DNA of 64,000 nt, from IMG/VR virus record IMGVR_UViG_3300009545_000002, positions 1-64,000 of that record; one strand, given 5' to 3'. The DNA is from a virus. Of the stretch, positions 47,684 to 58,553 are shown piece after piece. A program made the position numbers and the translations under genes. The notes under the pieces were generated by a model. That model worked only from the letters and a program-made list of their open reading frames with translations, had not been told where the DNA came from and did no database searches. Each line of letters opens with the position of its first letter. Positions within the stretch are counted from its first letter, which is position 1.

Positions 47684-48769
47684 TCAGCGCTTCTTCGGTC
47701 CGCGGCCCGACATCGCCACGCTGTCCGGCAGACGCTTGGCGGCCTCGCTCGCGTCGTAGTTGTAGTAGGTGTCGCGCAGCAGCCGGATGTCCTTCGTGCC
47801 CACCGCCTTGGACAGCTCGATCACGTCCAGGAATCTGCACAGGCGCGTGCAGGCCTCGTGCTTCGTGTCGTGGAAGTGCAGGTCGACGATGCCGGCCTGC
47901 TTCACCGCCTTGCGCCATAGCGCATCGCGCTGGCTGTCGTCGATGCCGACGATGTAGGGCTGGTCCGCGGGCATGGTCGCGAGCAGCTGCTCGATCAGGC
48001 GCCGCGCGCTGCCCGAGAGCGGCACGTTGCGGCTCGCGTCGACCGTGGCGCGGCCGCTCTTCGCGCCCTTGCGTCCGCCCTTCTCGAGTGCCGAGACGTG
48101 CACGTAGTCGTCTTCCGGGAAGAAGTCGATCGGGCGCAGGCGCAGCAGTTCGCCCGAGCGCATGCCGGTCTCCAGGCTGAGCAGGAAGCAGGCGCCGACG
48201 CGTGAGGTCAAGGTGCGCAGCTGCGGATCGAACTTGTAGCCGGTGGCGATGTTGATCGCCTCGACTTCCTTGTCGGTGAGCAGCGGCCGCTTGCGCGGCT
48301 TGCCCTTCGGCGGCCGGCGTGCGCCGTGGCAGGGGTTGACGTCGATCCAGCGGCGGTCCTTCACCGCGTAGGTGAACGCGCCGCTCATCAGGTTCATCTC
48401 GCGGTTGACCGTCGCGTCGCTGACTTCCTCGCCGCGGCGCGCCATCCACTCGTTGATGTCGTGCGTCACAATGTCCGCGAGCCGCCGCTCCGCGAGCGGA
48501 TCCAGACACCAATTGTCGATGCGTATCTTGTTCCACTTCGCCGAATCCGTCTTCAGCGCCACCGCATCGAGGTACGCCTCGAACAGCTGGCCGACCGTCA
48601 CGCCGGCCGCCCTGGTCGGCGTCAGCTGGCCGATTTCCTTCTTCCGCTCCATCTTGTCCGCCCAGGCCTGGGCCTCGACCTGGGTGTCGAAGGTGGCGGT
48701 TTTTCGGGTGCCGCCCGGGATGCGGACGGTCACTCGAAAGGTGTCGCCGCGTGGGGTTATTGCTGCCAT
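47684..48769 (-). CDS. int: Tyrosine integrase (Rci-like subfamily)
   Basis: ATVNREMN, LETGMRSGE, FHDTKHEACTRL, GTKDIRLLRDTYY; adjacent to att and xis. Confidence 0.9.
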   Translation of the reverse strand: MAAITPRGDTFRVTVRIPGGTRKTATFDTQVEAQAWADKMERKKEIGQLTPTRAAGVTVGQLFEAYLDAVALKTDSAKWNKIRIDNWCLDPLAERRLADIVTHDINEWMARRGEEVSDATVNREMNLMSGAFTYAVKDRRWIDVNPCHGARRPPKGKPRKRPLLTDKEVEAINIATGYKFDPQLRTLTSRVGACFLLSLETGMRSGELLRLRPIDFFPEDDYVHVSALEKGGRKGAKSGRATVDASRNVPLSGSARRLIEQLLATMPADQPYIVGIDDSQRDALWRKAVKQAGIVDLHFHDTKHEACTRLCRFLDVIELSKAVGTKDIRLLRDTYYNYDASEAAKRLPDSVAMSGRGPKKR

Positions 48770-49059
48770 GGTGTCGTCCTTGGTGTCATCGAGGGGCCTG
48801 CCCTGGCACCAGCGCCAACCTGGAAATCGTGGTGTCAGCGCTGGTGCCAGGGCTACCGACACTTTACCCGATTCCCCTGGGGCCAGGCCGGGCCCACTGG
48901 GGCCGGGTGACACCAAGACGGGCCGCACCGGACATGAAAAAAGCCCCGTAAATCAACGACTTACGGGGCTTTTTGCTTGCTTACCCTGGTGCCCAGGAGA
49001 AGCACCCAAAGTGAGTGTTTATGCGGCCTGCAGAGAATTTGGTGTCGGACTTGACACCA
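48769..49059. other. attP region with a tRNA-Leu-like core, arm-type sites, IHF site and terminator
   Basis: Core 48987-49002 reads CTTCTCCTGGGCACCA on minus (a tRNA 3' end). TGGTG(T/C)C repeats at 48769, 48781, 48830, 48842, 49040 and inverted at 48804, 48908, 49052. IHF match AATCAAcgacTTA (48951-48963) lies within hairpin 48937-48974. Confidence 0.75.
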
Positions 49060-49126
49060 CAGAGTGAAAAGTAGGACTCGATCTCGACTCGAAGCCCACT
49101 CCGGACTCACCTGGTCCGACTCCAAA

Positions 49127-49441
49127 TTAGCTTTCGACCTTGTTCCTCGGGCGGCCGATTTTGGCCTTGGGGGACTCGTACTCGTGGGCCGAGATCCACG
49201 TCAGGATCGCCGAGCGCCGCCACCTTGGACGGCTCTTTCCCTTGCCCGTCCCGGTGTCCAGATGGATCGCTTTCGGGAAGGTCGGCGAGTGCGCAAAGTG
49301 CTCGGTCACCGAGCGCGGCTCGCAGTTGATCAGGGCGGCCACGTCGTCGGTGTTGAGCAGCGGGTCCTCGATTTCGGCCCGGCGCAGCTCCTTGGCGATG
49401 ACCTTGCCGAGGGCTTCGATTTCACTCGCGTCCATGTTCAT
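49127..49441 (-). CDS. xis: Excisionase / AlpA-like HTH
   Basis: LLNTDDVAALI...FPKAI...RPRWRRSAILTWI; next to attP. Confidence 0.75.
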   Translation of the reverse strand: MNMDASEIEALGKVIAKELRRAEIEDPLLNTDDVAALINCEPRSVTEHFAHSPTFPKAIHLDTGTGKGKSRPRWRRSAILTWISAHEYESPKAKIGRPRNKVES

Positions 49442-49854
49442 GCTTCCCCTTCGGTTGGGAAAAGGTCTGTCGTGCGCGCCTGCAGCTTCCGCGTCATGTA
49501 CGCGCTGGTGATGTGATGTGGTTGATCGTAGGCCAGGTGATGCCGCTGGCACCAGGCCCGCAAATTCTCGGGATCGCAATGCTCTGGCACGTGATCCAGA
49601 TGGGCGATCGTCAGCACGATGCGGACGATGCGCTCGTCCTTCTCGATCGACTCCGCCAGCTCGAAGTCGAAGGTGCCCGGCGTGCTCGGGTGCACGATCT
49701 GCTTGAACAGCCCATCGCGCCAGACACCGACGGCAAGGTGTCGCGCGCCGCATCCTTCCCATTCGCAGCGGTAGCCGGCGCGGCTCATGATCTGCACGCG
49801 GACGTCTTGCCAGTCGGCGGGGTAGCGGGCTTTGTTCTCGGGCTTGATCGGCAT
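49438..49854 (-). CDS. Standalone HNH endonuclease-like protein
   Basis: CEWEGC...LTIAHLDHVPEHCDPENLRAWCQRHH. Confidence 0.75.
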   Translation of the reverse strand: MPIKPENKARYPADWQDVRVQIMSRAGYRCEWEGCGARHLAVGVWRDGLFKQIVHPSTPGTFDFELAESIEKDERIVRIVLTIAHLDHVPEHCDPENLRAWCQRHHLAYDQPHHITSAYMTRKLQARTTDLFPTEGEA

Positions 49855-49863
49855 GGGCAGGTC

Positions 49864-50085
49864 TCAGGTCGGGTCGGTGTGGGTGATGGTTCGTGAAGCC
49901 TTGAGCGCGGCGTGAATCTTGGTCAGCGCCTTGTCGTACTGCTCGAGCCAGTAGCGGGCATCGCCGTCGACGCGGCCCATTGCGTCACTGTGGCTGCGCA
50001 GCAGGATCGCCCGGTCGTGCTGGATGACATCCTTCGCGGCGAGCAGGGCGCGCCTGATGGTGGCATGGGCGGGTCTGTCTTTCAT
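49864..50085 (-). CDS. Hypothetical protein
   Basis: 73 aa; its ATG overlaps the last repeat of the downstream array. Confidence 0.55.
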   Translation of the reverse strand: MKDRPAHATIRRALLAAKDVIQHDRAILLRSHSDAMGRVDGDARYWLEQYDKALTKIHAALKASRTITHTDPT

Positions 50086-50893
50086 GGCGCTCTCTCTTTA
50101 CGGTGCTCTCGCGCAAGGTGGCTCGCTCAGCTGAGGTGGTGCTCTCTTGGGATATGGCTCGCACAGGATCTTTGGTGCTCTCGCGCAGGGGTGGCTCGCT
50201 CACTGGGAGGTGGTGCTCTCGCAGATCGTGGCTCGCTCGCTTGACATGGCGCTCTCGCCCTTTTGGCTCGCTCGTCTGTCATGGTTCTCTCCCGCAGGGG
50301 TGGCTCGCTCCAGGGGTAAGGTTCTCTCGGTGAACTGGGCTCGCTCTCAGCTGATGGTTCTCTCTGAGCCGCTGGCTCGCTCCGTGGGATTGGTGCTCTT
50401 CTTCGCTATGGCTCGCTCATTGTCATTGGGGCTCTCCGTACTCATGGCTCGCTCATGGGTTTAGGTGCTCTCGCGCTGAGTGGCTCGCTCATGGACTCGT
50501 GGTTCTCTCTGAGTTCCTGGCTCGCTCCCGATACGTGGTGCTCGTGGTGCTCTTCGAGACGATGGCTCGCTCATCACCAATGGTGCTCTCGGACAGAATG
50601 GCTCGCTCTTGCAGCATGGTTCTCTGCTGGTTGACGGCTCGCTCAACTCGTATGGTTCTCTCGCACTTTGTGGCTCGCTCATGAGCTCTGGCTCTCTTTG
50701 GGCGTCTGGCTCGCTCGTTGTAGATGGGTCTCTCCGGATGAATGGCTCGCTCCGTTCCATTGGTTCACTCACGCTTTCAGGCTCGCTCGGCAGGTAGGGT
50801 GCCCTCTGAAGACTTGGCTCGCTTGCGATCGATGGTGCTCTCGCTAACCGGGGCTCGCTCTTGCAACTTGGTGCTCTCTCACTCAACGGCTCA
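50085..50893 (-). ncRNA. TIGR-like dual-repeat guide-RNA array downstream of the tas gene, about 22 units
   Basis: On plus, TGGCTCGCTC alternates with TGGT(G/T)CTCTC, separated by unique 8-nt (occasionally 6, 7 or 9) spacers; period ~36 nt; 22 loop repeats counted from 50101 to 50869. Confidence 0.85.
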
Positions 50894-51733
50894 ATGCTTC
50901 GGCTCGCGCAGATGCGCGTGCCCCTGGATCGCGATCGGGTACGGCAGCGGCGGCTCTTTGCCGAAGTGCGTTCGGTACCAGGTCGCATGAAAGTCAGACA
51001 GGAACTGCTTCACCGCGTAGCGCTGCGCCCGCATGTCGATCTGACCTGGTGGCAGCTTGCCGGCGGCGTAGTGCTTGTGCGCCTCCGTCGTCTTGGCCAC
51101 GCGCGCGAGTCCGGCCGCCGCGGCCGCGGTGTTGCCCAGCGCCTCGTTGCGCTCGACTTCATAGGCCTTGCGCTGGCGATAGAGAGCGCCGTACACGCAT
51201 CCGGGCTGGTTGCTGAATTTCAGGAAGGACTGCCCGACCTTCCAGCACAGTACCTTCAGCTTGGCATTGAAGGGACGCTTCGTCTTCTTCTCCCACTTCG
51301 TGGTCGGATCGAGTCCGGCGAAGCGCCAGATATGGCCGACCGTCGGCGCCTTCGTGATATCGATGTGGGCCAGCAGTCCGGCTGCGATCACCGGCCCGAT
51401 GCCGTAGACCTCGTGCAGCCATGGTCCCATCGCATGCTGGCGCGAATAGACGTCGAGCGCGCGCTTGATCTCGTTCTCCATCGTCTGCAGCTGCTTGAAC
51501 AGCCAGTCGAGCATCGCATGTCCGTCGCCCTGATCGGCTGACTGGTCGATGCTGCGCATCTGCGCGGACGATGCGATGCGGTAATCCTGGAGCTGGTAGT
51601 AGGCGTCGACCATGAAGCGGATCTCTTGGCCCTTCAGCGTCTTTGCCGCCTGCAGCACGTCGCGCGCTGGCCTGGCAATGGACTCGAGGGAGATCGGTGC
51701 CTCGGGGATGCCTTTGTCTTCGTCGTCGCTCAT
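50891..51733 (-). CDS. tasA: TasA-like Nop-domain RNA-guided DNA-binding protein (IS110-related, no nuclease domain)
   Basis: 280 aa. Coiled coil (YYQLQDYRIA...), GIGPVIAAGLLAHI, WRFAGLDP, FNAKLKVLCWKVGQSF, YGALYRQRKAYE, RAQRYAVKQFLSDF. No DEDD/RuvC or HNH domain and no IS110 catalytic-Ser loop. Arrays on both sides. Confidence 0.82.
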   Translation of the reverse strand: MSDDEDKGIPEAPISLESIARPARDVLQAAKTLKGQEIRFMVDAYYQLQDYRIASSAQMRSIDQSADQGDGHAMLDWLFKQLQTMENEIKRALDVYSRQHAMGPWLHEVYGIGPVIAAGLLAHIDITKAPTVGHIWRFAGLDPTTKWEKKTKRPFNAKLKVLCWKVGQSFLKFSNQPGCVYGALYRQRKAYEVERNEALGNTAAAAAGLARVAKTTEAHKHYAAGKLPPGQIDMRAQRYAVKQFLSDFHATWYRTHFGKEPPLPYPIAIQGHAHLREPKH

Positions 51734-51739
51734 TGGGTG

Positions 51740-52262
51740 TGGTCCTCTCGTGGTGATTGGCTGCATGCCAGCCCGGCATGCTGGGTCGCTCTACTTCGAT
51801 GGGTGCTCTCGGCGTGGGTGGCTCGCTCAGGTTCGCTGGTTCTCTCTCAGTGTTTGGCTCGCTCGTTCACTATGGTTCGCTCCGATCGATGGGCTCGCTC
51901 AACACTGATGGTCCACTCCCACTTGTTGGCTCGCTCGGGGATGCTGGTTCTCTCGACCGCAATGGCTCACTCACTGCCTCTGGTGCTCTCGGTAAGTCTG
52001 GCTCGCTCAGTCGCAATGGTCCGCTCGCGAAACCTGGCTCGCTCGTCACGCATGGTTCGCTCGTTGAATATGGCTCGCTCGCAATGCTTGGTCCTCTCGC
52101 TCTGTGCGGCTCGCTCCGCGCTCTCGGTGCTCTCCGGTCTGTTGGCTCGCTCGACCATCTTGGTGCTCTCAGCGAATACGGGCTCGCTCGTTGTGCATGG
52201 TTCCCTCACGGCTCGGTGGCTCGCTCCGGCTTCGTGGTTCTCTCGTGATTTTTGGCTCGCTA
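51740..52262 (-). ncRNA. TIGR-like dual-repeat guide-RNA array upstream of the tas gene, 13 full units plus one partial
   Basis: Edge repeats at 51782, 51819, 51855, 51891, 51927, 51963, 51999, 52035, 52071, 52107, 52143, 52180, 52217 and 52253, with loop repeats midway. Confidence 0.85.
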
Positions 52263-52703
52263 CTGCGGCGCCGCCAGCAAGTTCGCGGTGCTGACGTGCT
52301 CGAGGACTGTCCGGCCGTTGGGCAGCAGGATCTGACCCAAGAACGCGCCTTCGAAAGTCAGGATGCCGACTTCCACCGCAGTGACCTGGCCCTTGATCCA
52401 GTCGCGCAGCACCGAGCAGACCGAGACCTGGGCCTGGTCCAGCGCGCGCCGCTCGTGCTCAATCTTCGTTCGCCGGTGTCGGCTCGGGTTGTACGGGTAC
52501 TCCTTGAGCCAGGCCGCGGCGTATCCGCGGTAGCTGGCCTTCACGGTCACGTCGCGAGTGCGATAGGTGAACTGCACGATCAGCTCGCCGAGCTCGTTGT
52601 CCGTCATCGTGCCGAAGCGCGAGCAGCCGAAGCGCGTCAAGACCTTGCGGATCTCGTCGAGCGCGCCGGCGCCCGAGGTCGCGCCTTCATACGGCAGGGC
52701 CAT
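52260..52703 (-). CDS. Conserved hypothetical phage protein
   Basis: MALPYEGATSG...EIRKVLTRFG...LRDWIKGQVTAVE.GILTFEGAFL. Confidence 0.75.
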   Translation of the reverse strand: MALPYEGATSGAGALDEIRKVLTRFGCSRFGTMTDNELGELIVQFTYRTRDVTVKASYRGYAAAWLKEYPYNPSRHRRTKIEHERRALDQAQVSVCSVLRDWIKGQVTAVEVGILTFEGAFLGQILLPNGRTVLEHVSTANLLAAPQ

Positions 52704-52718
52704 CGCCAGCTCCCGCGT

Positions 52719-53429
52719 TCATGGCTGGCCGATGGCGCCGCTGGTGGTCGTGCCATGCCGCTCGACGAACTCGTCGGTCGCGTCCTTCGGCTTGCGCGAC
52801 TTCTTGTCGGCGGGCTTGTTGATCGGCACGCCGTTGACCGCGCCAGAGCTCTCGGCAAACGGCCAGTTCGGATCGCCGCCGCTCTCTTCGCTGGGTGCGG
52901 AATCGAGCATCGCCTGGCTCTCGGCCGACGGCACCATCATCGCCTGCACTTCGTGCTTGAGCATCGCCGACAGCTTGCCGACCGCGCGTTCATCCGGCTG
53001 CGATCGTTGGACTCGCCAGGTCACTTTGACCGTGCCGCCCTGCTTGCACTCGAGCCTGAAGTTGTTCGCCTTGCAGTCGGTGATTTTCACGTTCGACTTG
53101 CCGGCCAGGCCGTACTCGAAGGTCAGCGTGCACCCTTCTTGATCACCGTGCCATTTCAGGACATCGAGCTCGGGGAAGCGCAGGTCGGGCGCGTCGTTCG
53201 GCTCCTCGAGCTCGAGCGGCACCTGGTCCGGGCGCGGCTGCGGCGTCTTCGACTTGAAGTAGAGCCAGGACTTCAGGCGCGGGTTGAACAGCTTCAGCAC
53301 GTCGTTGTGCATTTCCTTCGACAGCTTGATGTCGATGGCCGGCACCTTTTCGTCGCCGTGGTTCTCGTCGCGCAGGTTGATGTGCTCGATGATGACGGGC
53401 GTCAGATCGGGGAGGGCAAATCGGTTCAC
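52719..53429 (-). CDS. Hypothetical phage protein (beta-rich)
   Basis: GTG start with SD AAGGAG; RDENHGDEKVPAIDI...ECKQGGTVKVTWRVQ. Confidence 0.7.
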   Translation of the reverse strand: MNRFALPDLTPVIIEHINLRDENHGDEKVPAIDIKLSKEMHNDVLKLFNPRLKSWLYFKSKTPQPRPDQVPLELEEPNDAPDLRFPELDVLKWHGDQEGCTLTFEYGLAGKSNVKITDCKANNFRLECKQGGTVKVTWRVQRSQPDERAVGKLSAMLKHEVQAMMVPSAESQAMLDSAPSEESGGDPNWPFAESSGAVNGVPINKPADKKSRKPKDATDEFVERHGTTTSGAIGQP

Positions 53430-53455
53430 TTTGGGACTCCTTTGATTGGGGCGAT

Positions 53456-54535
53456 TCAGACTTCTTGCAGGACGATGCGCTTCGACTCGATGAGGCCCCG
53501 GTTGACCTCGCCGAGCACTGCAATCCCGAGCTGACTGATTCCCTTGTTGGCCGACTGGGCCTTCGAGATTGCATCCATGAGCTTGTGCGCGCCGATCTTG
53601 CGCATGCGCGCATTGAGAGTCGGGTTCTCGACGCCGCCCTCGATGCGGCGATCGAGGTAGTCCAAGGCCTTGATCAGCTCGCCGAAGATCGGCGCGCCGG
53701 GCGTGATGTCTTGCATGCAGCACAGCACGGCTTCGCAGCGCCGCATGTCGCGCTTCGCCATGCCGTAGACGTAGGCGATCGCGGCCAGCTGGTTGGCCCC
53801 CTTCGCTGCGCGAGCCACCACGTCGATGCCGAGTGCGCATAGGGCCTGGTCCAGCTGAATCGCGATCGGGTCTTCGCCTGTCACGAGCGCACGATATTTG
53901 TCGGAGGCATGCACGCCGCTGCGGTTGATGTTGATCGCCGCGAAGATGCGCGCTTCGTGGTTGATGCCCTGGCTCTCGAAGACAAGGCAGTTCAACTCGG
54001 TCAACTCGACTCGCCGCTGTGAAGCCATCCAGCGGTTTTGCCCGTCGACGATATAGAATTCGTCGCCGCGCTGCGCGACGGTCAGCGCGCCGAATGCAAC
54101 CATGTCCAGCGCGGCGGCGATCTGATCGACTTTCGTCTGGCTGACGGTGTTGCGCTGGTAGGTCGTGCAGATGCTGAGCTTCGCCTTGTGCAAGCGCATC
54201 GGACGCAGTTCGCCGGTGATGGGGAGCCACTCGCGCTTGAGTGCATCGGCTGCCGAGTCGAGGGAGTGCTCAACGTAGGCCTCGTGCTGCGGCAAAGCGG
54301 GCGGTCCGGAGTCTGAAAGCTGCTGCACGTGCGGCAGCTTGAGTAGCCTCTGCCGGCGCCAGAACCCAGCAGCGCCAGACACCGTCGAGAGCCATTTGCC
54401 GAGTCCGGGATTCGAGGCCAGCATCTCTTTCAGGTAGTCGCGCGAGGTCCAGTGAGCGCGAGCGCCCTCGGGGATCCGCGCGCAGACTCGGCGCAGTTCA
54501 GCTTCCGCTGTTTGTTGCCGGCGAGCTGTGTTCAT
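53456..54535 (-). CDS. ParB-like (DUF6551 / DGQHR-type) protein
   Basis: YQR...FGALTVAQR...YIVDGQNR...EARIFAAIN. Confidence 0.7.
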   Translation of the reverse strand: MNTARRQQTAEAELRRVCARIPEGARAHWTSRDYLKEMLASNPGLGKWLSTVSGAAGFWRRQRLLKLPHVQQLSDSGPPALPQHEAYVEHSLDSAADALKREWLPITGELRPMRLHKAKLSICTTYQRNTVSQTKVDQIAAALDMVAFGALTVAQRGDEFYIVDGQNRWMASQRRVELTELNCLVFESQGINHEARIFAAININRSGVHASDKYRALVTGEDPIAIQLDQALCALGIDVVARAAKGANQLAAIAYVYGMAKRDMRRCEAVLCCMQDITPGAPIFGELIKALDYLDRRIEGGVENPTLNARMRKIGAHKLMDAISKAQSANKGISQLGIAVLGEVNRGLIESKRIVLQEV

Positions 54536-55463
54536 CTTGTTCGCTCCGGTTGATGATGGTCAGCGTGTTGAGCACGTTGCGAAGGAAGGGCATCCCCATG
54601 TGCAAGTTAGCTGCGACTCCTATCCGCTGCTCGTGGGTGAGAACGCGCAGCAGCCCATCGGCCGACACATTGGCCCTTGCAAGCACGCGAAGCGCGTCAG
54701 CCACATTCAGCAGTCGCTCGGCAGTCTCGCGGGCGTGCTGGCGTTCTTCTTCCAGCGTGCGCCGAATGGGGACTACCACCGATGAATGCTGGCCAGGCGC
54801 AAGCGCGGCGCGCCGCTGCGCCATGGCTTCTTCGCGTGATGCCTGCAGCGCGGCCTCACGGTCCTTCAGGCGATCACGCGAAGCGAGCCATGCTGATTCG
54901 ATCGTCAGCTCGCCGGCAACCACGCGGACGGCCAGGTCAGGCGACACCTTGACGACGCGCCATAGCTTCTTCTGCGTGGCTTCGCACAACGTGCGCTTGC
55001 CGAGATAGTCTTTCGCACGGTGCTCGATGTCGAGAGCGCATGGGTTTTGATTCCACTGGACTACGCGGGCGCGAAGGTCGCGGCTCGACTTGCCTTCACG
55101 CTGCGCCCAATCGAGCATTTCGTCGGCTACGTCCCCAGGCAACGCAGCGACCTCTGCATGATGGGTGAATGAAAGAACTTGCCGGCGCCGGCAAGTTTCT
55201 TTGAAGGCCCTTGCGGTTGTGGCCGCATGAGCGCAAGTCTGAAACGACGGCCCGCGCCAGTCCGGCGCTTCGGTCAATGCCTTGCGGTTGCCATAGGTGC
55301 GATCACCATAGGCCCAGAGGTCGCCGAGCTGCCATTGGTGCCGATTGTGCTGTTCGCTGATCTGGTGAAGCGCGGCGAGCCAATCTTCTTCGGGCATCGG
55401 CTCCTCTGGCGGGAGCCATCCGTTTTCGGTGAAGGTACCCATATCCATCCTAGGCCCAGTCAT
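54498..55463 (-). CDS. LmbU-like HTH domain protein
   Basis: QWQLGDLWAYG...YG...RRRQVLSFTHHAEVAAL...SSRDLR. Confidence 0.65.
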   Translation of the reverse strand: MTGPRMDMGTFTENGWLPPEEPMPEEDWLAALHQISEQHNRHQWQLGDLWAYGDRTYGNRKALTEAPDWRGPSFQTCAHAATTARAFKETCRRRQVLSFTHHAEVAALPGDVADEMLDWAQREGKSSRDLRARVVQWNQNPCALDIEHRAKDYLGKRTLCEATQKKLWRVVKVSPDLAVRVVAGELTIESAWLASRDRLKDREAALQASREEAMAQRRAALAPGQHSSVVVPIRRTLEEERQHARETAERLLNVADALRVLARANVSADGLLRVLTHEQRIGVAANLHMGMPFLRNVLNTLTIINRSEQDEHSSPATNSGS

Positions 55464-55785
55464 TGTCAAAAGTGATCACCACGTCGCCGACGATCTCGTG
55501 CGTCGTGCCGGGCACGCAGTTCTGCCAATAGAGCTCGGTCGCCTTCCGGTTGACCGGCTTGAGCGCCTTGGTCGGGCGCTGCTCGAAGTGGCCCGGGCTG
55601 TGCTCGATCCACTCGACTTCGTAGCCCTGATCGTCGACGCACATCACCTGCAGCGGCGGGCCCAGGTGGCGCAGGCTGACCACGTCGATCGTCCGTGCGC
55701 CTATCAGTCTGCGGATCTCGTCATGCGGAATCGGCTTGTCGAAATTCACCTCGGTGCCGTCGGTGCGGATGAGGCGCCGGCTCAT
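55450..55785 (-). CDS. DUF3846-like protein
   Basis: LIRTDG...MCVDDQG...PVNRKATELY...IVGDVVI. Confidence 0.65.
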   Translation of the reverse strand: MSRRLIRTDGTEVNFDKPIPHDEIRRLIGARTIDVVSLRHLGPPLQVMCVDDQGYEVEWIEHSPGHFEQRPTKALKPVNRKATELYWQNCVPGTTHEIVGDVVITFDNDWA

Positions 55786-56921
55786 GCTTCGCCCCACTCC
55801 TGCTTGTAGACGGCGGCCAGCTGCTCGAGCTCTTCGGGATCCAGCACGCCGCGCGCCTGGTCGAGCACCAGCGCCGCCGTCTCGGCGGATGTCGCGGTGC
55901 GGATGCCGTACTCGCACTCGGCGAAGGCGCGGACCGACTTTTCAGCGCCGGCGGTCTGCTGCTCTTGCTGGCTATGCTCGCGCTCCGCCGGCTCCTCGAC
56001 GGCTGCGCCGCCGCTGCCGCCCTTGCGCGGCCGCGTGGCGCGCTGGCGCGGCGCCGGGGCATCGGGCGCCGGCGGCTGTGGCGGCGGATCGATCTCGCCC
56101 GTGTCCTCGTCGATCGCGGCGAACGGCGGCGGGACGTACGAATTCGAGATCGCGTCCTGCAGGCCCAGCTGCTGCACGCCGCGCGAGGCCGCGTCGTCCA
56201 GCGCGAGCGCGCTCGCCAGCTCCGGCGACTTCGGCAGGTATTTGCAGATCCGGCGCAGCACCGTCTTGCGCGCCATCTCGTCCCAGTCGGTGTCCCAGGG
56301 GGTCTGCTTGCCGAAGCGGGACGCGGTCTGCACGTTCTGCGACCGCGCCTTGATGCGCTGGATGTCGGCGAGCGTCATGAGCTCGGCGTGCGAGCCGCCG
56401 CCCTTCAGGCGCGCCACGGCGTAGACCAGCCGCACCGGGCCGGCATCGCCGTCGAGGAACGGCCGGTGCACGATGCCTGGCTCGGTGCCCCACTGAACCT
56501 CGAACTGGTCGTTCGTGCGCACCAGGTGCGCCGAGATCGACTCCACCAGGCCGGAGCGGCGCACGAGCTCGAGCAGCCCCTGGTAGCCGATCTGCAGCGT
56601 GCAGATGTAGACGCCCTCGCGGTTCTTGTACGGGATCAGGTAGCACTCGCCCATCAGCCCCGGCCGCAGCCCGAGCTGCGAGGCCTGGATCACGCACGAG
56701 AACACCGAGATCGGCGGGCACTCGGCGAGCCGCGGGTTCAGCGAGAAGCACGTCAGCGCGATGCGCATCATCGTGTCGGCGTTGAGGTGCCGCGGCAAGG
56801 CGCGGGCGATCTCGTTCCGGCGCGCTTCGAGCATGGTGCGGAAGTTGTCCGCGCCGCCGCGTCGCGTGACTTCACCGGCGGCGACGTTCTTCAGCGTGGT
56901 GGTCGGGAGGGGAGCGTTCAT
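55782..56921 (-). CDS. recT: RecT ssDNA-annealing protein
   Basis: ASQLGLRP...CYLIPY...IGYQGLLELVRRSG...WDEMARKTVLRRICKYLP. Confidence 0.93.
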   Translation of the reverse strand: MNAPLPTTTLKNVAAGEVTRRGGADNFRTMLEARRNEIARALPRHLNADTMMRIALTCFSLNPRLAECPPISVFSCVIQASQLGLRPGLMGECYLIPYKNREGVYICTLQIGYQGLLELVRRSGLVESISAHLVRTNDQFEVQWGTEPGIVHRPFLDGDAGPVRLVYAVARLKGGGSHAELMTLADIQRIKARSQNVQTASRFGKQTPWDTDWDEMARKTVLRRICKYLPKSPELASALALDDAASRGVQQLGLQDAISNSYVPPPFAAIDEDTGEIDPPPQPPAPDAPAPRQRATRPRKGGSGGAAVEEPAEREHSQQEQQTAGAEKSVRAFAECEYGIRTATSAETAALVLDQARGVLDPEELEQLAAVYKQEWGEA

Positions 56922-57148: not shown

Positions 57149-58087
57149 TCAATCGCCGCGGTAGGTGAAGGCCCAGCCGGGCAGGTCGATCAGCTGGATC
57201 TCATCTCCGTAGCCTGGCCAGACGCCTCGGCGCCGGCAGGCCGCGTATCGATCGAGGTTTCGCCGGTAATCTTCACGGCCTTGCTCGCGGCTGCGATCGT
57301 CGAGCATCATCGCCTGCGCCAGAAACGGCCACTCGGTCTCCACCGCCACGAACACGAAGGCCAGCACGTCGACCTTCGCCGCGATCTCGTAGCCGTCGGA
57401 GTAGAAGGCGTCCTGCACGTGGTAGCGCTTGCGTGCGACCTGGCGGCGAAACTCGTTCGCGCTCGCGTCGGCGTAGGTCTTGACGTCGAGCAACCCGACG
57501 CGGCTGCCGCCGAAATCGGCCACCCAGTCCGGGCGGCAGCGGCACGCCTCGCCGGTCTCCTGGTCGATCCACATGGCCGAGACCTCGGAGCGGCCGTGCC
57601 CGAGCGCCTCGGCCACGTCCGGCAGCCGGCGCATGTTCTGCGCCTGGCGCATCGCGGTCTCGTACTGCGCGGCCGTGATGATCACCTTGCCGCTGTGGCG
57701 CTGGCCGAACTCGCTCCACCAGGCCATTGCGGCCACGCTCTCCGAGCTCGGGTTTTTGGCGTTCCACTGCGCCTCGGTCGGCCGGCGCGGCGCGTTCGGC
57801 GGCACGGTGATGTAGCGGGAAAGGAAGGCCTCGGGCTCGAGCAGTGCGCAATGCGCCAGCTGGCCCTCGAGCTGACCGGCACGTTCTTTACGTGGCGGCC
57901 GCATCGGATCGAGGTAACCCGCGAAATAGTGCGCAGGACTGCGGTTTATCAAGTCGAGTCCCGACTTCGAGATGCCGGGCATCGCGTGATACACATCGAT
58001 GTCGATGCCGTGGGCAATACCCGGGAAAGTACTCGGTACCAGGTCGGCGGCAGTGGCCACATGCAGGCGTTCGACGACTTCGTTCAT
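57149..58087 (-). CDS. recE: RecE/exonuclease VIII-like PD-(D/E)xK nuclease (DUF3799)
   Basis: YHAMPGISKSGL, HCALLEP, CRCRPDW, DVKT, YHVQDAFY. Confidence 0.88.
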   Translation of the reverse strand: MNEVVERLHVATAADLVPSTFPGIAHGIDIDVYHAMPGISKSGLDLINRSPAHYFAGYLDPMRPPRKERAGQLEGQLAHCALLEPEAFLSRYITVPPNAPRRPTEAQWNAKNPSSESVAAMAWWSEFGQRHSGKVIITAAQYETAMRQAQNMRRLPDVAEALGHGRSEVSAMWIDQETGEACRCRPDWVADFGGSRVGLLDVKTYADASANEFRRQVARKRYHVQDAFYSDGYEIAAKVDVLAFVFVAVETEWPFLAQAMMLDDRSREQGREDYRRNLDRYAACRRRGVWPGYGDEIQLIDLPGWAFTYRGD

Positions 58088-58235
58088 GTCATGACTCCCG
58101 CGAGATAGCCGAGACCGAAAAAGACCAGGTAGATGATCGCGATGGTGAGTCTCGAGCACTGCCGGCTGATCGCGTCGGGCCGCACCTGCTCGACGGCGCA
58201 GCTGTAGTCGACGTCGTTCGCGTTCGGGCGCCCGC

Positions 58236-58553
58236 TCATGACTGCCCTCTTCGGGCATTGATGACGCGTGCCAGGCAAAGCCAGGCCCGGTCAGGCGTGC
58301 GGTGCGGCCCCTGGCAGGGCACGTGCTCTCCCCCGATGAAGCACTCGTAACTGCTGCCGACCAGGCGCACCACGGCACTCGGCTCGATGCTCAGGACGAG
58401 CGGTTTGAACTTCTGTCGGCGCGGCCGTAAATGCTTGTCTTCGGTGATCTTGAAGCGCGAGTCATACGCGTTGTCATGGCTGGCAATGGCTTGCGCAAGC
58501 GAGTCTGTGCTGTCGCGCACAGACGTCCCACTGATCGTCTCCATCGACGTCAT
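58236..58553 (-). CDS. Hypothetical protein, first gene of the leftward operon
   Basis: ORF just downstream of the leftward promoter; no HTH or S24 features seen. Confidence 0.45.
   Translation of the reverse strand: MTSMETISGTSVRDSTDSLAQAIASHDNAYDSRFKITEDKHLRPRRQKFKPLVLSIEPSAVVRLVGSSYECFIGGEHVPCQGPHRTPDRAWLCLARVINARRGQS

Follow-up and report, generated by a model that had tools for sequence, protein, structure and literature searches.

A probable dual-repeat TIGR-TasA system with 35 guides in the leftward early block of a temperate rhizosphere phage

The RNA-guided TIGR-Tas systems, first defined in 2025 (Faure 2025, PMC12045711), are known from 20,096 published tas loci, and a recent survey counts 65,635 tigRNAs in 4,126 dual-repeat arrays, i.e., about 16 per array (bioRxiv 10.64898/2026.09.09.750476). 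As described for FpTIGR of Flavonifractor plautii (Faure 2025, PMC12045711), such a system pairs a solo Nop-domain Tas protein with same-strand arrays upstream and/or downstream of tas, in which edge repeats alternate with loop repeats, each about 10 nt long, and short paired spacers lie between them in a 36-nt unit; the TasA protein binds 36-nt RNAs. Here we describe a locus at 50085-52262 of the virus record IMGVR_UViG_3300009545_000002, a single contig of 73,387 nt with 66.2% G+C, of which the first 64,000 nt form the window. The source is a temperate siphovirus-like phage from rhizosphere metagenomes, whose 73-kb genome is near-complete. The locus is very probably a dual-repeat TIGR-TasA system placed within the leftward early block of recombination, excision and integration genes. 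It consists of a gene for a protein of 280 aa with a coiled coil and a Nop-like domain and without a nuclease domain, tasA (50891-51733, minus strand), an upstream array of 13 units (51782-52262, minus strand) and a downstream array of 22 units (50085-50896, minus strand), and thus holds 35 guides in total.

The likeness to FpTIGR extends to the solo Nop-domain protein, the alternating repeats, the short paired spacers, the 36-nt unit and the same-strand arrays, whereas the spacers are 8 nt long here (16 nt per guide) and 9 nt in FpTIGR. The arrays of the phage are wedged between genes without a terminator, unlike those of FpTIGR, and the phage protein is likened to FpTasA by its published description (Faure 2025, PMC12045711). 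The SpTIGR-TasH system of Salicola phage CGphi29 (PDB 9w03, 9w04, 21kl; PMC13421893) is phage-borne like the present one and has the same total guide length of 16 nt (Faure 2025). SpTasH is also the best structural match of the phage protein (TM up to 0.64), with 19-20% identity in the structural alignment and with a shared Tyr-x6-His spacing in the C-terminal loop; however, it carries an N-terminal HNH nuclease and cuts DNA, whereas the protein of this phage begins at the coiled coil. The function that we propose is the one described for MbTasA of Minisyncoccota and for dead TasR, which act as nuclease-free, guide-dependent and reversible transcriptional repressors (bioRxiv 10.64898/2026.09.09.750476); MbTasA was assayed there in E. 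coli on reporters, and TasA of this phage is likened to it by description. The first-pass annotation of the stretch had placed arrays on both sides of the gene, which the parse of the repeats confirms, and the same preprint describes this arrangement as one of the usual layouts.

Two further kinds of element were compared with the locus. The tasParB-tasA operons combine TasA with 10-nt repeats (Faure 2025), and a ParB-like gene shares the leftward block here; unlike in these operons, two other genes stand between the ParB-like gene and the upstream array. Assignment to this subtype was rejected, as no homologue of the ParB-like gene was found near tasA in 102 related loci and ParB is absent among the 25 commonest Pfam families of 133 ORFs upstream of tasA in the relatives. 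The IS110-family recombinase IS621 (PDB 8wt6) has a homologous RNA-binding coiled coil and Nop-like C-terminal region (profile E 1.2e-4; Foldseek), but it also has a DEDD/RuvC-like domain and uses a single bridge RNA, whereas the phage locus is not an insertion sequence. An IS110-family transposase was ruled out by the missing DEDD domain and by the presence of 35 guides in tandem where a single bridge RNA would be expected. Since the family, the two-sided layout, the repressor function and the array sizes (13 and 22 units) are all published or ordinary, the locus is another dual-repeat TIGR-TasA system and not a new kind.

In the upstream array, made of 14 edge and 13 loop repeats, each unit runs from the edge repeat GAGCGAGCCA through spacer A and the loop repeat GAGNGNACCA to spacer B, and the array closes with the edge repeat GAGCGACCCA at 51791-51782. 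Its first edge repeat overlaps the TAG stop codon (52262-52260) of a 147-aa gene. The downstream array begins with an edge repeat that is 5'-truncated and overlaps the TGA stop codon of tasA, contains a partial duplication of the loop repeat (9 nt, 50545-50553), and ends with the repeat GAGAGCGCCA (50094-50085), the final letter of which is the A of the next gene's ATG. Among the 70 spacers, 61 are 8 nt long, seven are 9 nt, a single one is 7 nt and the final spacer 6 nt; their G+C content is 54.5% compared with 66.2% for the genome. Tandem Repeats Finder reports a period of 36. When up to two mismatches per repeat were allowed, the whole 73,387-nt genome contained 69 edge-spacer-loop adjacencies on the minus strand, 68 of them within the two arrays, and one on the plus strand. 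With the adjacencies so concentrated, the arrays are not explained by chance, and the same genome-wide search found no dispersed arrays elsewhere. The dual-repeat unit, the 36-nt period, the coordinates and the count of 13 plus about 22 units, all of which had been read from the letters in the first-pass annotation, proved correct in the minus-strand parse.

The stretch between the upstream array and tasA holds two small elements. A 7-bp hairpin (GCAUGCC-GGGCU-GGCAUGC; 51763-51781, minus strand) lies between the last edge repeat and the ribosome-binding region of tasA; no U-run follows it, and the fold energy of the surrounding 76-nt stretch is no better than that of shuffled sequences (z 0.19). 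Closer to the gene, the loop-repeat-like sequence GAGAGGACCA (51740-51749, minus strand) includes GAGAGGA, 6 nt upstream of the ATG, and likely supplies the Shine-Dalgarno sequence of tasA. Within the downstream array, three guides near the 3' end (50310-50275, 50201-50165 and 50128-50095, minus strand) have similar spacers A, CCCCTGCGG, CCCCTGCGC and CCTTGCGC, and unrelated spacers B, and Tandem Repeats Finder detects a weak period of 145 nt (4 units) at 50264-50528. The similar spacers and the longer period hint at duplication of units or blocks followed by divergence.

Both repeats start with GAG and end with CCA (box-C-like). Pairing between positions 3 and 8 is possible in 36 of the 37 edge repeats and in all 35 loop repeats, and pairing between positions 4 and 7 is possible in 35 edge repeats of 37 but in only 2 of 35 loop repeats. 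In the published anatomy of TIGR repeats, box D pairs with box C in either repeat, a single additional pair forms in the edge repeat, and the middle of the loop repeat is tetraloop-like and tolerates sequence change (Faure 2025, PMC12045711); the tolerant positions of the loop repeat in this phage are 4 and 6. Judged from the letters of the repeats, the predicted pairing pattern matches that anatomy. The 5' end of the repeat is GAG here and UG in TaTasR; box motifs may diverge but co-vary between both repeats, according to Faure 2025 (PMC12045711). Two types of edge repeat, GATCGAACCA and GAGTGAGACA, follow each other in turn in two related loci (L009 8816-9200 and L007 7726-8000); positions 3-8 and 4-7 cannot pair within either type, and pairing instead joins the 3' half of one repeat to the 5' half of its successor of the other type. 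Such alternation would represent compensatory change in trans, which is expected if the processed guide pairs the halves of neighbouring edge repeats.

The relationship of the protein to Tas was evident from sequence and from predicted structure. The protein database holds exactly the 280-aa product that starts at the ATG at 51733; an alternative reading of 291 aa from 51766 is possible, and its start would fall inside the hairpin. A phmmer search of PDB matched TaTasR (9mty_A, E 2.4e-12) and SpTasH (21kl_A, E 1.4e-8) together with seven further TasH entries, whereas IS621 reached only 0.74; a profile built from 32 homologues gave E-values of 8.5e-18 for TasR, 3.3e-14 for TasH and 1.2e-4 for IS621. 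The AlphaFold2 model (pLDDT 86.1, pTM 0.81) consists of helices only, with low confidence for the first 22 residues, and two long predicted helices, residues 35-63 and 73-99, fit a coiled coil. Its ten best Foldseek matches in PDB are TasH and TasR chains (E 8.5e-7 to 7.7e-6, TM 0.53-0.64), followed by the IS110-family recombinases ISCro4 and IS621. The only Pfam family at E <= 0.01 is PF02371 (E 1.2e-4, 22.9 bits, residues 117-157 in the numbering of the 291-aa reading), which represents the Nop-like C-terminal part of IS110 transposases; three weaker matches lie below the cutoff (E 0.07-0.1), and nothing matches the N-terminal part. In PHROGs, the protein falls into phrog_4285, labelled 'transposase' (E 1.4e-52). 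No RuvC, HNH or DEDD domain was found by Pfam or in the helices-only model. Given the Tas homology and fold without any of these domains, the protein is TasA in the published sense. The first-pass annotation had called it a Nop/IS110-like protein without a nuclease, with a coiled coil and with GIGP-type and WRFAGLDP motifs; structure prediction and profile searches sharpen this to a TasR/TasH relationship, and the motifs YGIGPVIAAGLL and IWRFAGLDP are present as it had said. Prediction of a TasA homodimer gave a median score of 0.50, and one control scored 0.55.

The C-terminal motif PYPIAxxGHAH is nearly invariant: Y265 is kept in at least 90% of the 32 homologues and H272 in all of them. The two residues stand 7 residues apart in a low-confidence C-terminal loop of the AlphaFold2 model, with the same spacing as Tyr289 and His296 of SpTasH, the catalytic pair that cuts the precursor (PMC13421893). 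We infer that Y265 and H272 correspond to this pair; since no alignment covers the TasH loop, the correspondence is drawn from position, spacing and conservation. The C-terminal 49 aa of TasA searched on their own against PDB returned no Tas match.

The same gene-plus-array module is spread over hundreds of viral contigs. Among 8000 candidates scored, at least 3876 homologues were found at E <= 1e-3, and the 120 best homologues listed are 50-71% identical and 247-335 aa long, a range taken from the one length class searched. Species-representative genomes of many phyla contributed 22 loci, and in IMG/VR 432 of 439 pattern-matched stretches encode relatives, 80 of which were fetched, giving a set of 102 related loci (84 non-redundant). 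An array with a period of 33-39 nt accompanies the gene in 89 of the 102 loci and reaches about 57 units at most; 58 loci have it downstream only, 16 upstream only and 15 on both sides. At least three units with the same two repeats as in the phage occur in 85 loci of the 102. The neighbours are not conserved, as none of 11 neighbour proteins from the window lies beside tasA in more than 4/102 loci, and the commonest Pfam families of 133 upstream ORFs in the relatives belong to phage recombination and replication (PDDEXK_15 in 5, YqaJ in 4, HNH in 4 and DNA_pol_A in 3). Against 50,697 phage records, neither megablast of 49000-56000 nor tblastn of TasA found a match. The single protein, used as a query against viral and genome contigs, found no relative, while scans with the homologue alignment did. 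None of 995 distinct guide pairs of the relatives, collected by a finder that ignored the edge/loop register and therefore including off-register pairs, resembles one of the 35 guides at 4 mismatches or fewer. The repeat tables of the relatives carry such off-register pairs as well and were set aside as evidence. In one relative (L006 1101-2690), a separate HNH ORF of 208 aa (2047-2673) has entered the 3' end of the tasA homologue, and what is left of the original C-terminus (PYPIAIGGHAHK...) stands further downstream, ahead of the array.

We propose that both arrays would be transcribed from the minus strand together with tasA. The leftward block has no predicted sigma-70-like promoter within it, and from 58.4 kb onward no terminator occurs until the single strong minus-strand terminator at 47591-47571, after the integrase gene. 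With no terminator behind either array and no predicted promoter within the block, co-transcription with the early leftward genes is plausible, although it remains inferred. The transcript could yield 35 guide RNAs of about 36 nt, possibly processed by the conserved Tyr/His loop at the C-terminus of TasA itself. A TasA dimer would grip each RNA via the GAG...CCA ends of both repeats, spacers A and B would pair with opposite DNA strands, and the two adjacent 8-bp half-sites would make up a 16-bp site. As TasA is without a nuclease, the complex would remain on the DNA and could block transcription or replication without cutting. Expression, processing, dimerisation, DNA binding and targets are all put forward here as predictions. 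The most likely role is to silence genes of the phage's host or rival mobile elements within it; the published discussion and the single lead in a related prophage described below lead us to consider the chances that rival mobile elements are the target as evenly balanced.

Several results weigh against this proposal. Neither array is followed by a terminator, while published arrays typically end in one. The runs that contain the stretch are rhizosphere and root metagenomes, none of them of RNA, which bears on expression and on processing to 36 nt. The alignments to TasH by phmmer and by profile stop short of the Tyr/His loop. The searches for targets were mostly negative as well. The published cleavage geometry, with its C-5 rule and 8-nt 3' overhangs, implies a predicted target that reads spacer A followed by the reverse complement of spacer B with 0-2 bp between, the same composite form that the first-pass annotation had suggested searching for. 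In the phage's own genome, the 35 guides gave no exact match, one match with one mismatch (0.28 expected) and seven with two mismatches (6.8 expected), the expectations coming from 100 re-pairings of the spacers; in either geometry, nothing exceeded the re-paired controls, so that the suggested search found neither an exact match nor an excess there. Against 1.29 Mb of related loci, the 35 guides again had no exact match, and 1318 guides (the 35 and those of relatives) had 4 compared with 3.7 in re-paired controls.

Host targets of the relatives were sought with 22 in-register guides of three related prophages (L003, L005 and L007), each in its own genome and in four others; the test left out U1 of L007, six irregular or GC-rich guides of L005 and all guides of L009. 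This test, too, counts mostly as negative evidence. Exact matches in the own genome were found for 2 of the 22 guides, with 0/88 in the other genomes and none for reversed patterns; all ten L005 guides tested, five of six from L003 and five of six from L007 were without a match. The L007 match, in a Halomonas isolate with this prophage, is exact with a 1-bp gap (C) at L104 5059-5075 (G002:C36:12058-12074). We took it as compatible with chance because the guide is GC-rich and the site lies mid-gene in an MFS-like transporter in DNA of 69% GC, with an estimated chance rate of about 0.04. With gaps of 0 and 1 (C), the two exact matches give no support to targets centred on a GC dinucleotide.

The positions of the arrays also invite a reading in which they are chiefly cis-acting RNA-processing or regulatory elements of the early operon, DNA targeting being secondary. 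TasA-dependent cutting at the 37 edge repeats would sever the leftward transcript and uncouple the recET side from the HNH-xis-int side, and TasA would control its own synthesis by binding the loop-like repeat that covers the tasA Shine-Dalgarno sequence. The stop and start codons of flanking genes inside repeats, the loop-like repeat at the ribosome-binding site of tasA, and the uninterrupted course from 58.4 kb to the terminator after int, free of terminators and of sigma-70-like promoters, all speak for such an effect. However, processing in cis would not need 35 different spacer pairs, the modules of relatives stand in unrelated gene contexts (none of the 11 neighbours recurs in more than 4 of the 102 loci), and a cis effect would add to DNA targeting rather than replace it; we regard this reading as improbable. 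Recruitment of a separate nuclease by TasA, so that targets would be cut as by a split TasH, is very improbable. A candidate exists in the leftward block, the HNH gene at 49438-49854 (phrog_1571, E 5.5e-24), and HNH domains occur among the upstream ORFs of relatives (PF01844 in 4/133, PF14279 in 2/133), but the protein resembles neither TasH nor any solved chain (best E in PDB 0.91), and tblastn placed this gene near tasA in 0/102 related loci. Phages commonly carry stand-alone HNH genes for other reasons, which further counts against the recruitment of this one.

The Nop fold and the box C/D-like layout of the guides are common to snoRNPs (Faure 2025, PMC12045711), and the guides might by analogy direct TasA to RNA in a snoRNP-like or antisense fashion. 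Against this, the Tas proteins characterised in the sources act on DNA, TaTasR is inactive on RNA substrates, and MbTasA binds dsDNA in gel shifts (bioRxiv 10.64898/2026.09.09.750476). The 10-gene block around the arrays, in which no search aimed at that pathway was made, showed no fibrillarin-like methyltransferase, and we give RNA targeting only a slight chance. That the arrays are translated as repeat proteins, or that the locus is a decayed IS110-type insertion sequence, has a practically negligible probability. The upstream array is indeed stop-free in one plus-strand frame (160/160 codons), and databases label homologues 'transposase', but no frame is open through the downstream array (longest 144/270 codons), and units of 35, 37 and 45 nt break any frame. 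The protein is also without the DEDD catalytic domain, and hundreds of viral contigs keep the module, the repeats being constant and the spacers entirely different. The first-pass annotation had named translation of the arrays as one finding that would speak against it; with the downstream array closed in all frames and the frame broken by the unit lengths, the arrays are very unlikely to be repeat proteins.

A possible natural target of a TIGR-TasA system appeared in one relative. L003 is a prophage of an Acidobacteria isolate with a TasA 56% identical to that of the phage, the same repeats and a six-guide array (L003 8789-9010). One of its guides matches 16/16 with gap 0 at a distant place on the 6.69-Mb scaffold that carries the TasA prophage, and a second one matches 14/16 without a gap 910 bp away (L103 4053-4068 and 4963-4978, i.e., G001:C1:6329052-6329067 and 6329962-6329977). 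The exact site is an AT-rich 16-mer located 25-40 nt inside an 86-aa HTH_17 gene, the first gene of a leftward operon in a small tRNA-Glu-integrated element with an integrase, an XRE-type regulator and two HTH_17 genes. Among 400 other genomes from that order, the 16-mer occurs once, in an unrelated context, which puts the empirical chance of finding it at about 0.0025 per genome. The second match is one of three in the genome with at most two mismatches; the C-terminal part of the gene it lies in is 62% identical at the protein level to a gene of the TasA prophage, the prophage copy being diverged at the site. A rough joint probability is the product of ~0.015-0.045 (an exact own-genome match for six guides) and ~0.005-0.013 (a second near-match within 1 kb), for a single system and a window chosen post hoc. 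In 40 kb around the site, matches with up to three mismatches showed no excess (7 compared with 7.6 in controls), and a cluster of three matches within 1.3 kb also arose in 13 of 265 re-pairings.

The L003 matches are therefore a lead and not a result. The lead fits the suppression of competing mobile elements, which is offered as an option in the discussion of the preprint (bioRxiv 10.64898/2026.09.09.750476). From the 16/16 and 14/16 matches in the co-resident tRNA-Glu element, we tentatively hypothesize that the 35 guides form a repertoire against rival integrated elements or phages of the same host, silencing their early operons and sparing the phage's own diverged gene copies, a reading that we still hold to be on the doubtful side. 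If it were true generally, such silencing of rivals would be the first natural-target assignment for TIGR-TasA. The natural targets of TIGR and the way in which arrays change are stated as unresolved in the published descriptions (Faure 2025, PMC12045711; bioRxiv 10.64898/2026.09.09.750476). On the former, the double match of L003 offers one testable lead. On the latter, contig pieces from four other rhizosphere/root runs (2017, 2025) that lie at 49587-52339 and cover parts of both arrays are identical to the window, which contributes one small negative datum; spacer turnover was not visible between the window and these other runs. The phage itself provides a well-delimited and near-complete genome with a textbook case of dual-repeat TIGR-TasA and 35 parsed guides, and could serve as a model in native context once its host is identified. 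The part worth following is the natural-target lead in the relative, above the window itself.

The leftward block, all on the minus strand, places the system between recET and xis, in agreement with the position given in the first-pass annotation. It begins with an exonuclease VIII-like gene (57149-58378) and RecT (55782-56921), followed by two genes of unknown function, the ParB-like gene (53456-54535; Pfam DUF6551, E 4.5e-10; phrog_1033, ParB-like) and two more unknowns before the upstream array. The last of these is the 147-aa upstream neighbour of unknown function (52260-52703; phrog_17260, E 4e-16) with its stop codon inside the first edge repeat. After tasA and the downstream array come a 73-aa ORF without a family match (49864-50085), the start codon of which abuts the last repeat, the stand-alone HNH gene, two genes downstream of the array, a xis-like HTH gene (49127-49447) and the integrase gene (47684-48928). 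The plus strand of the phage encodes the large terminase, a capsid-protease fusion, the portal and the tape measure, and no isolate phage has a capsid protein more than 45% identical to its own. Elsewhere in the window, an ORF at 14594-15907 matches methyltransferase PHROGs.

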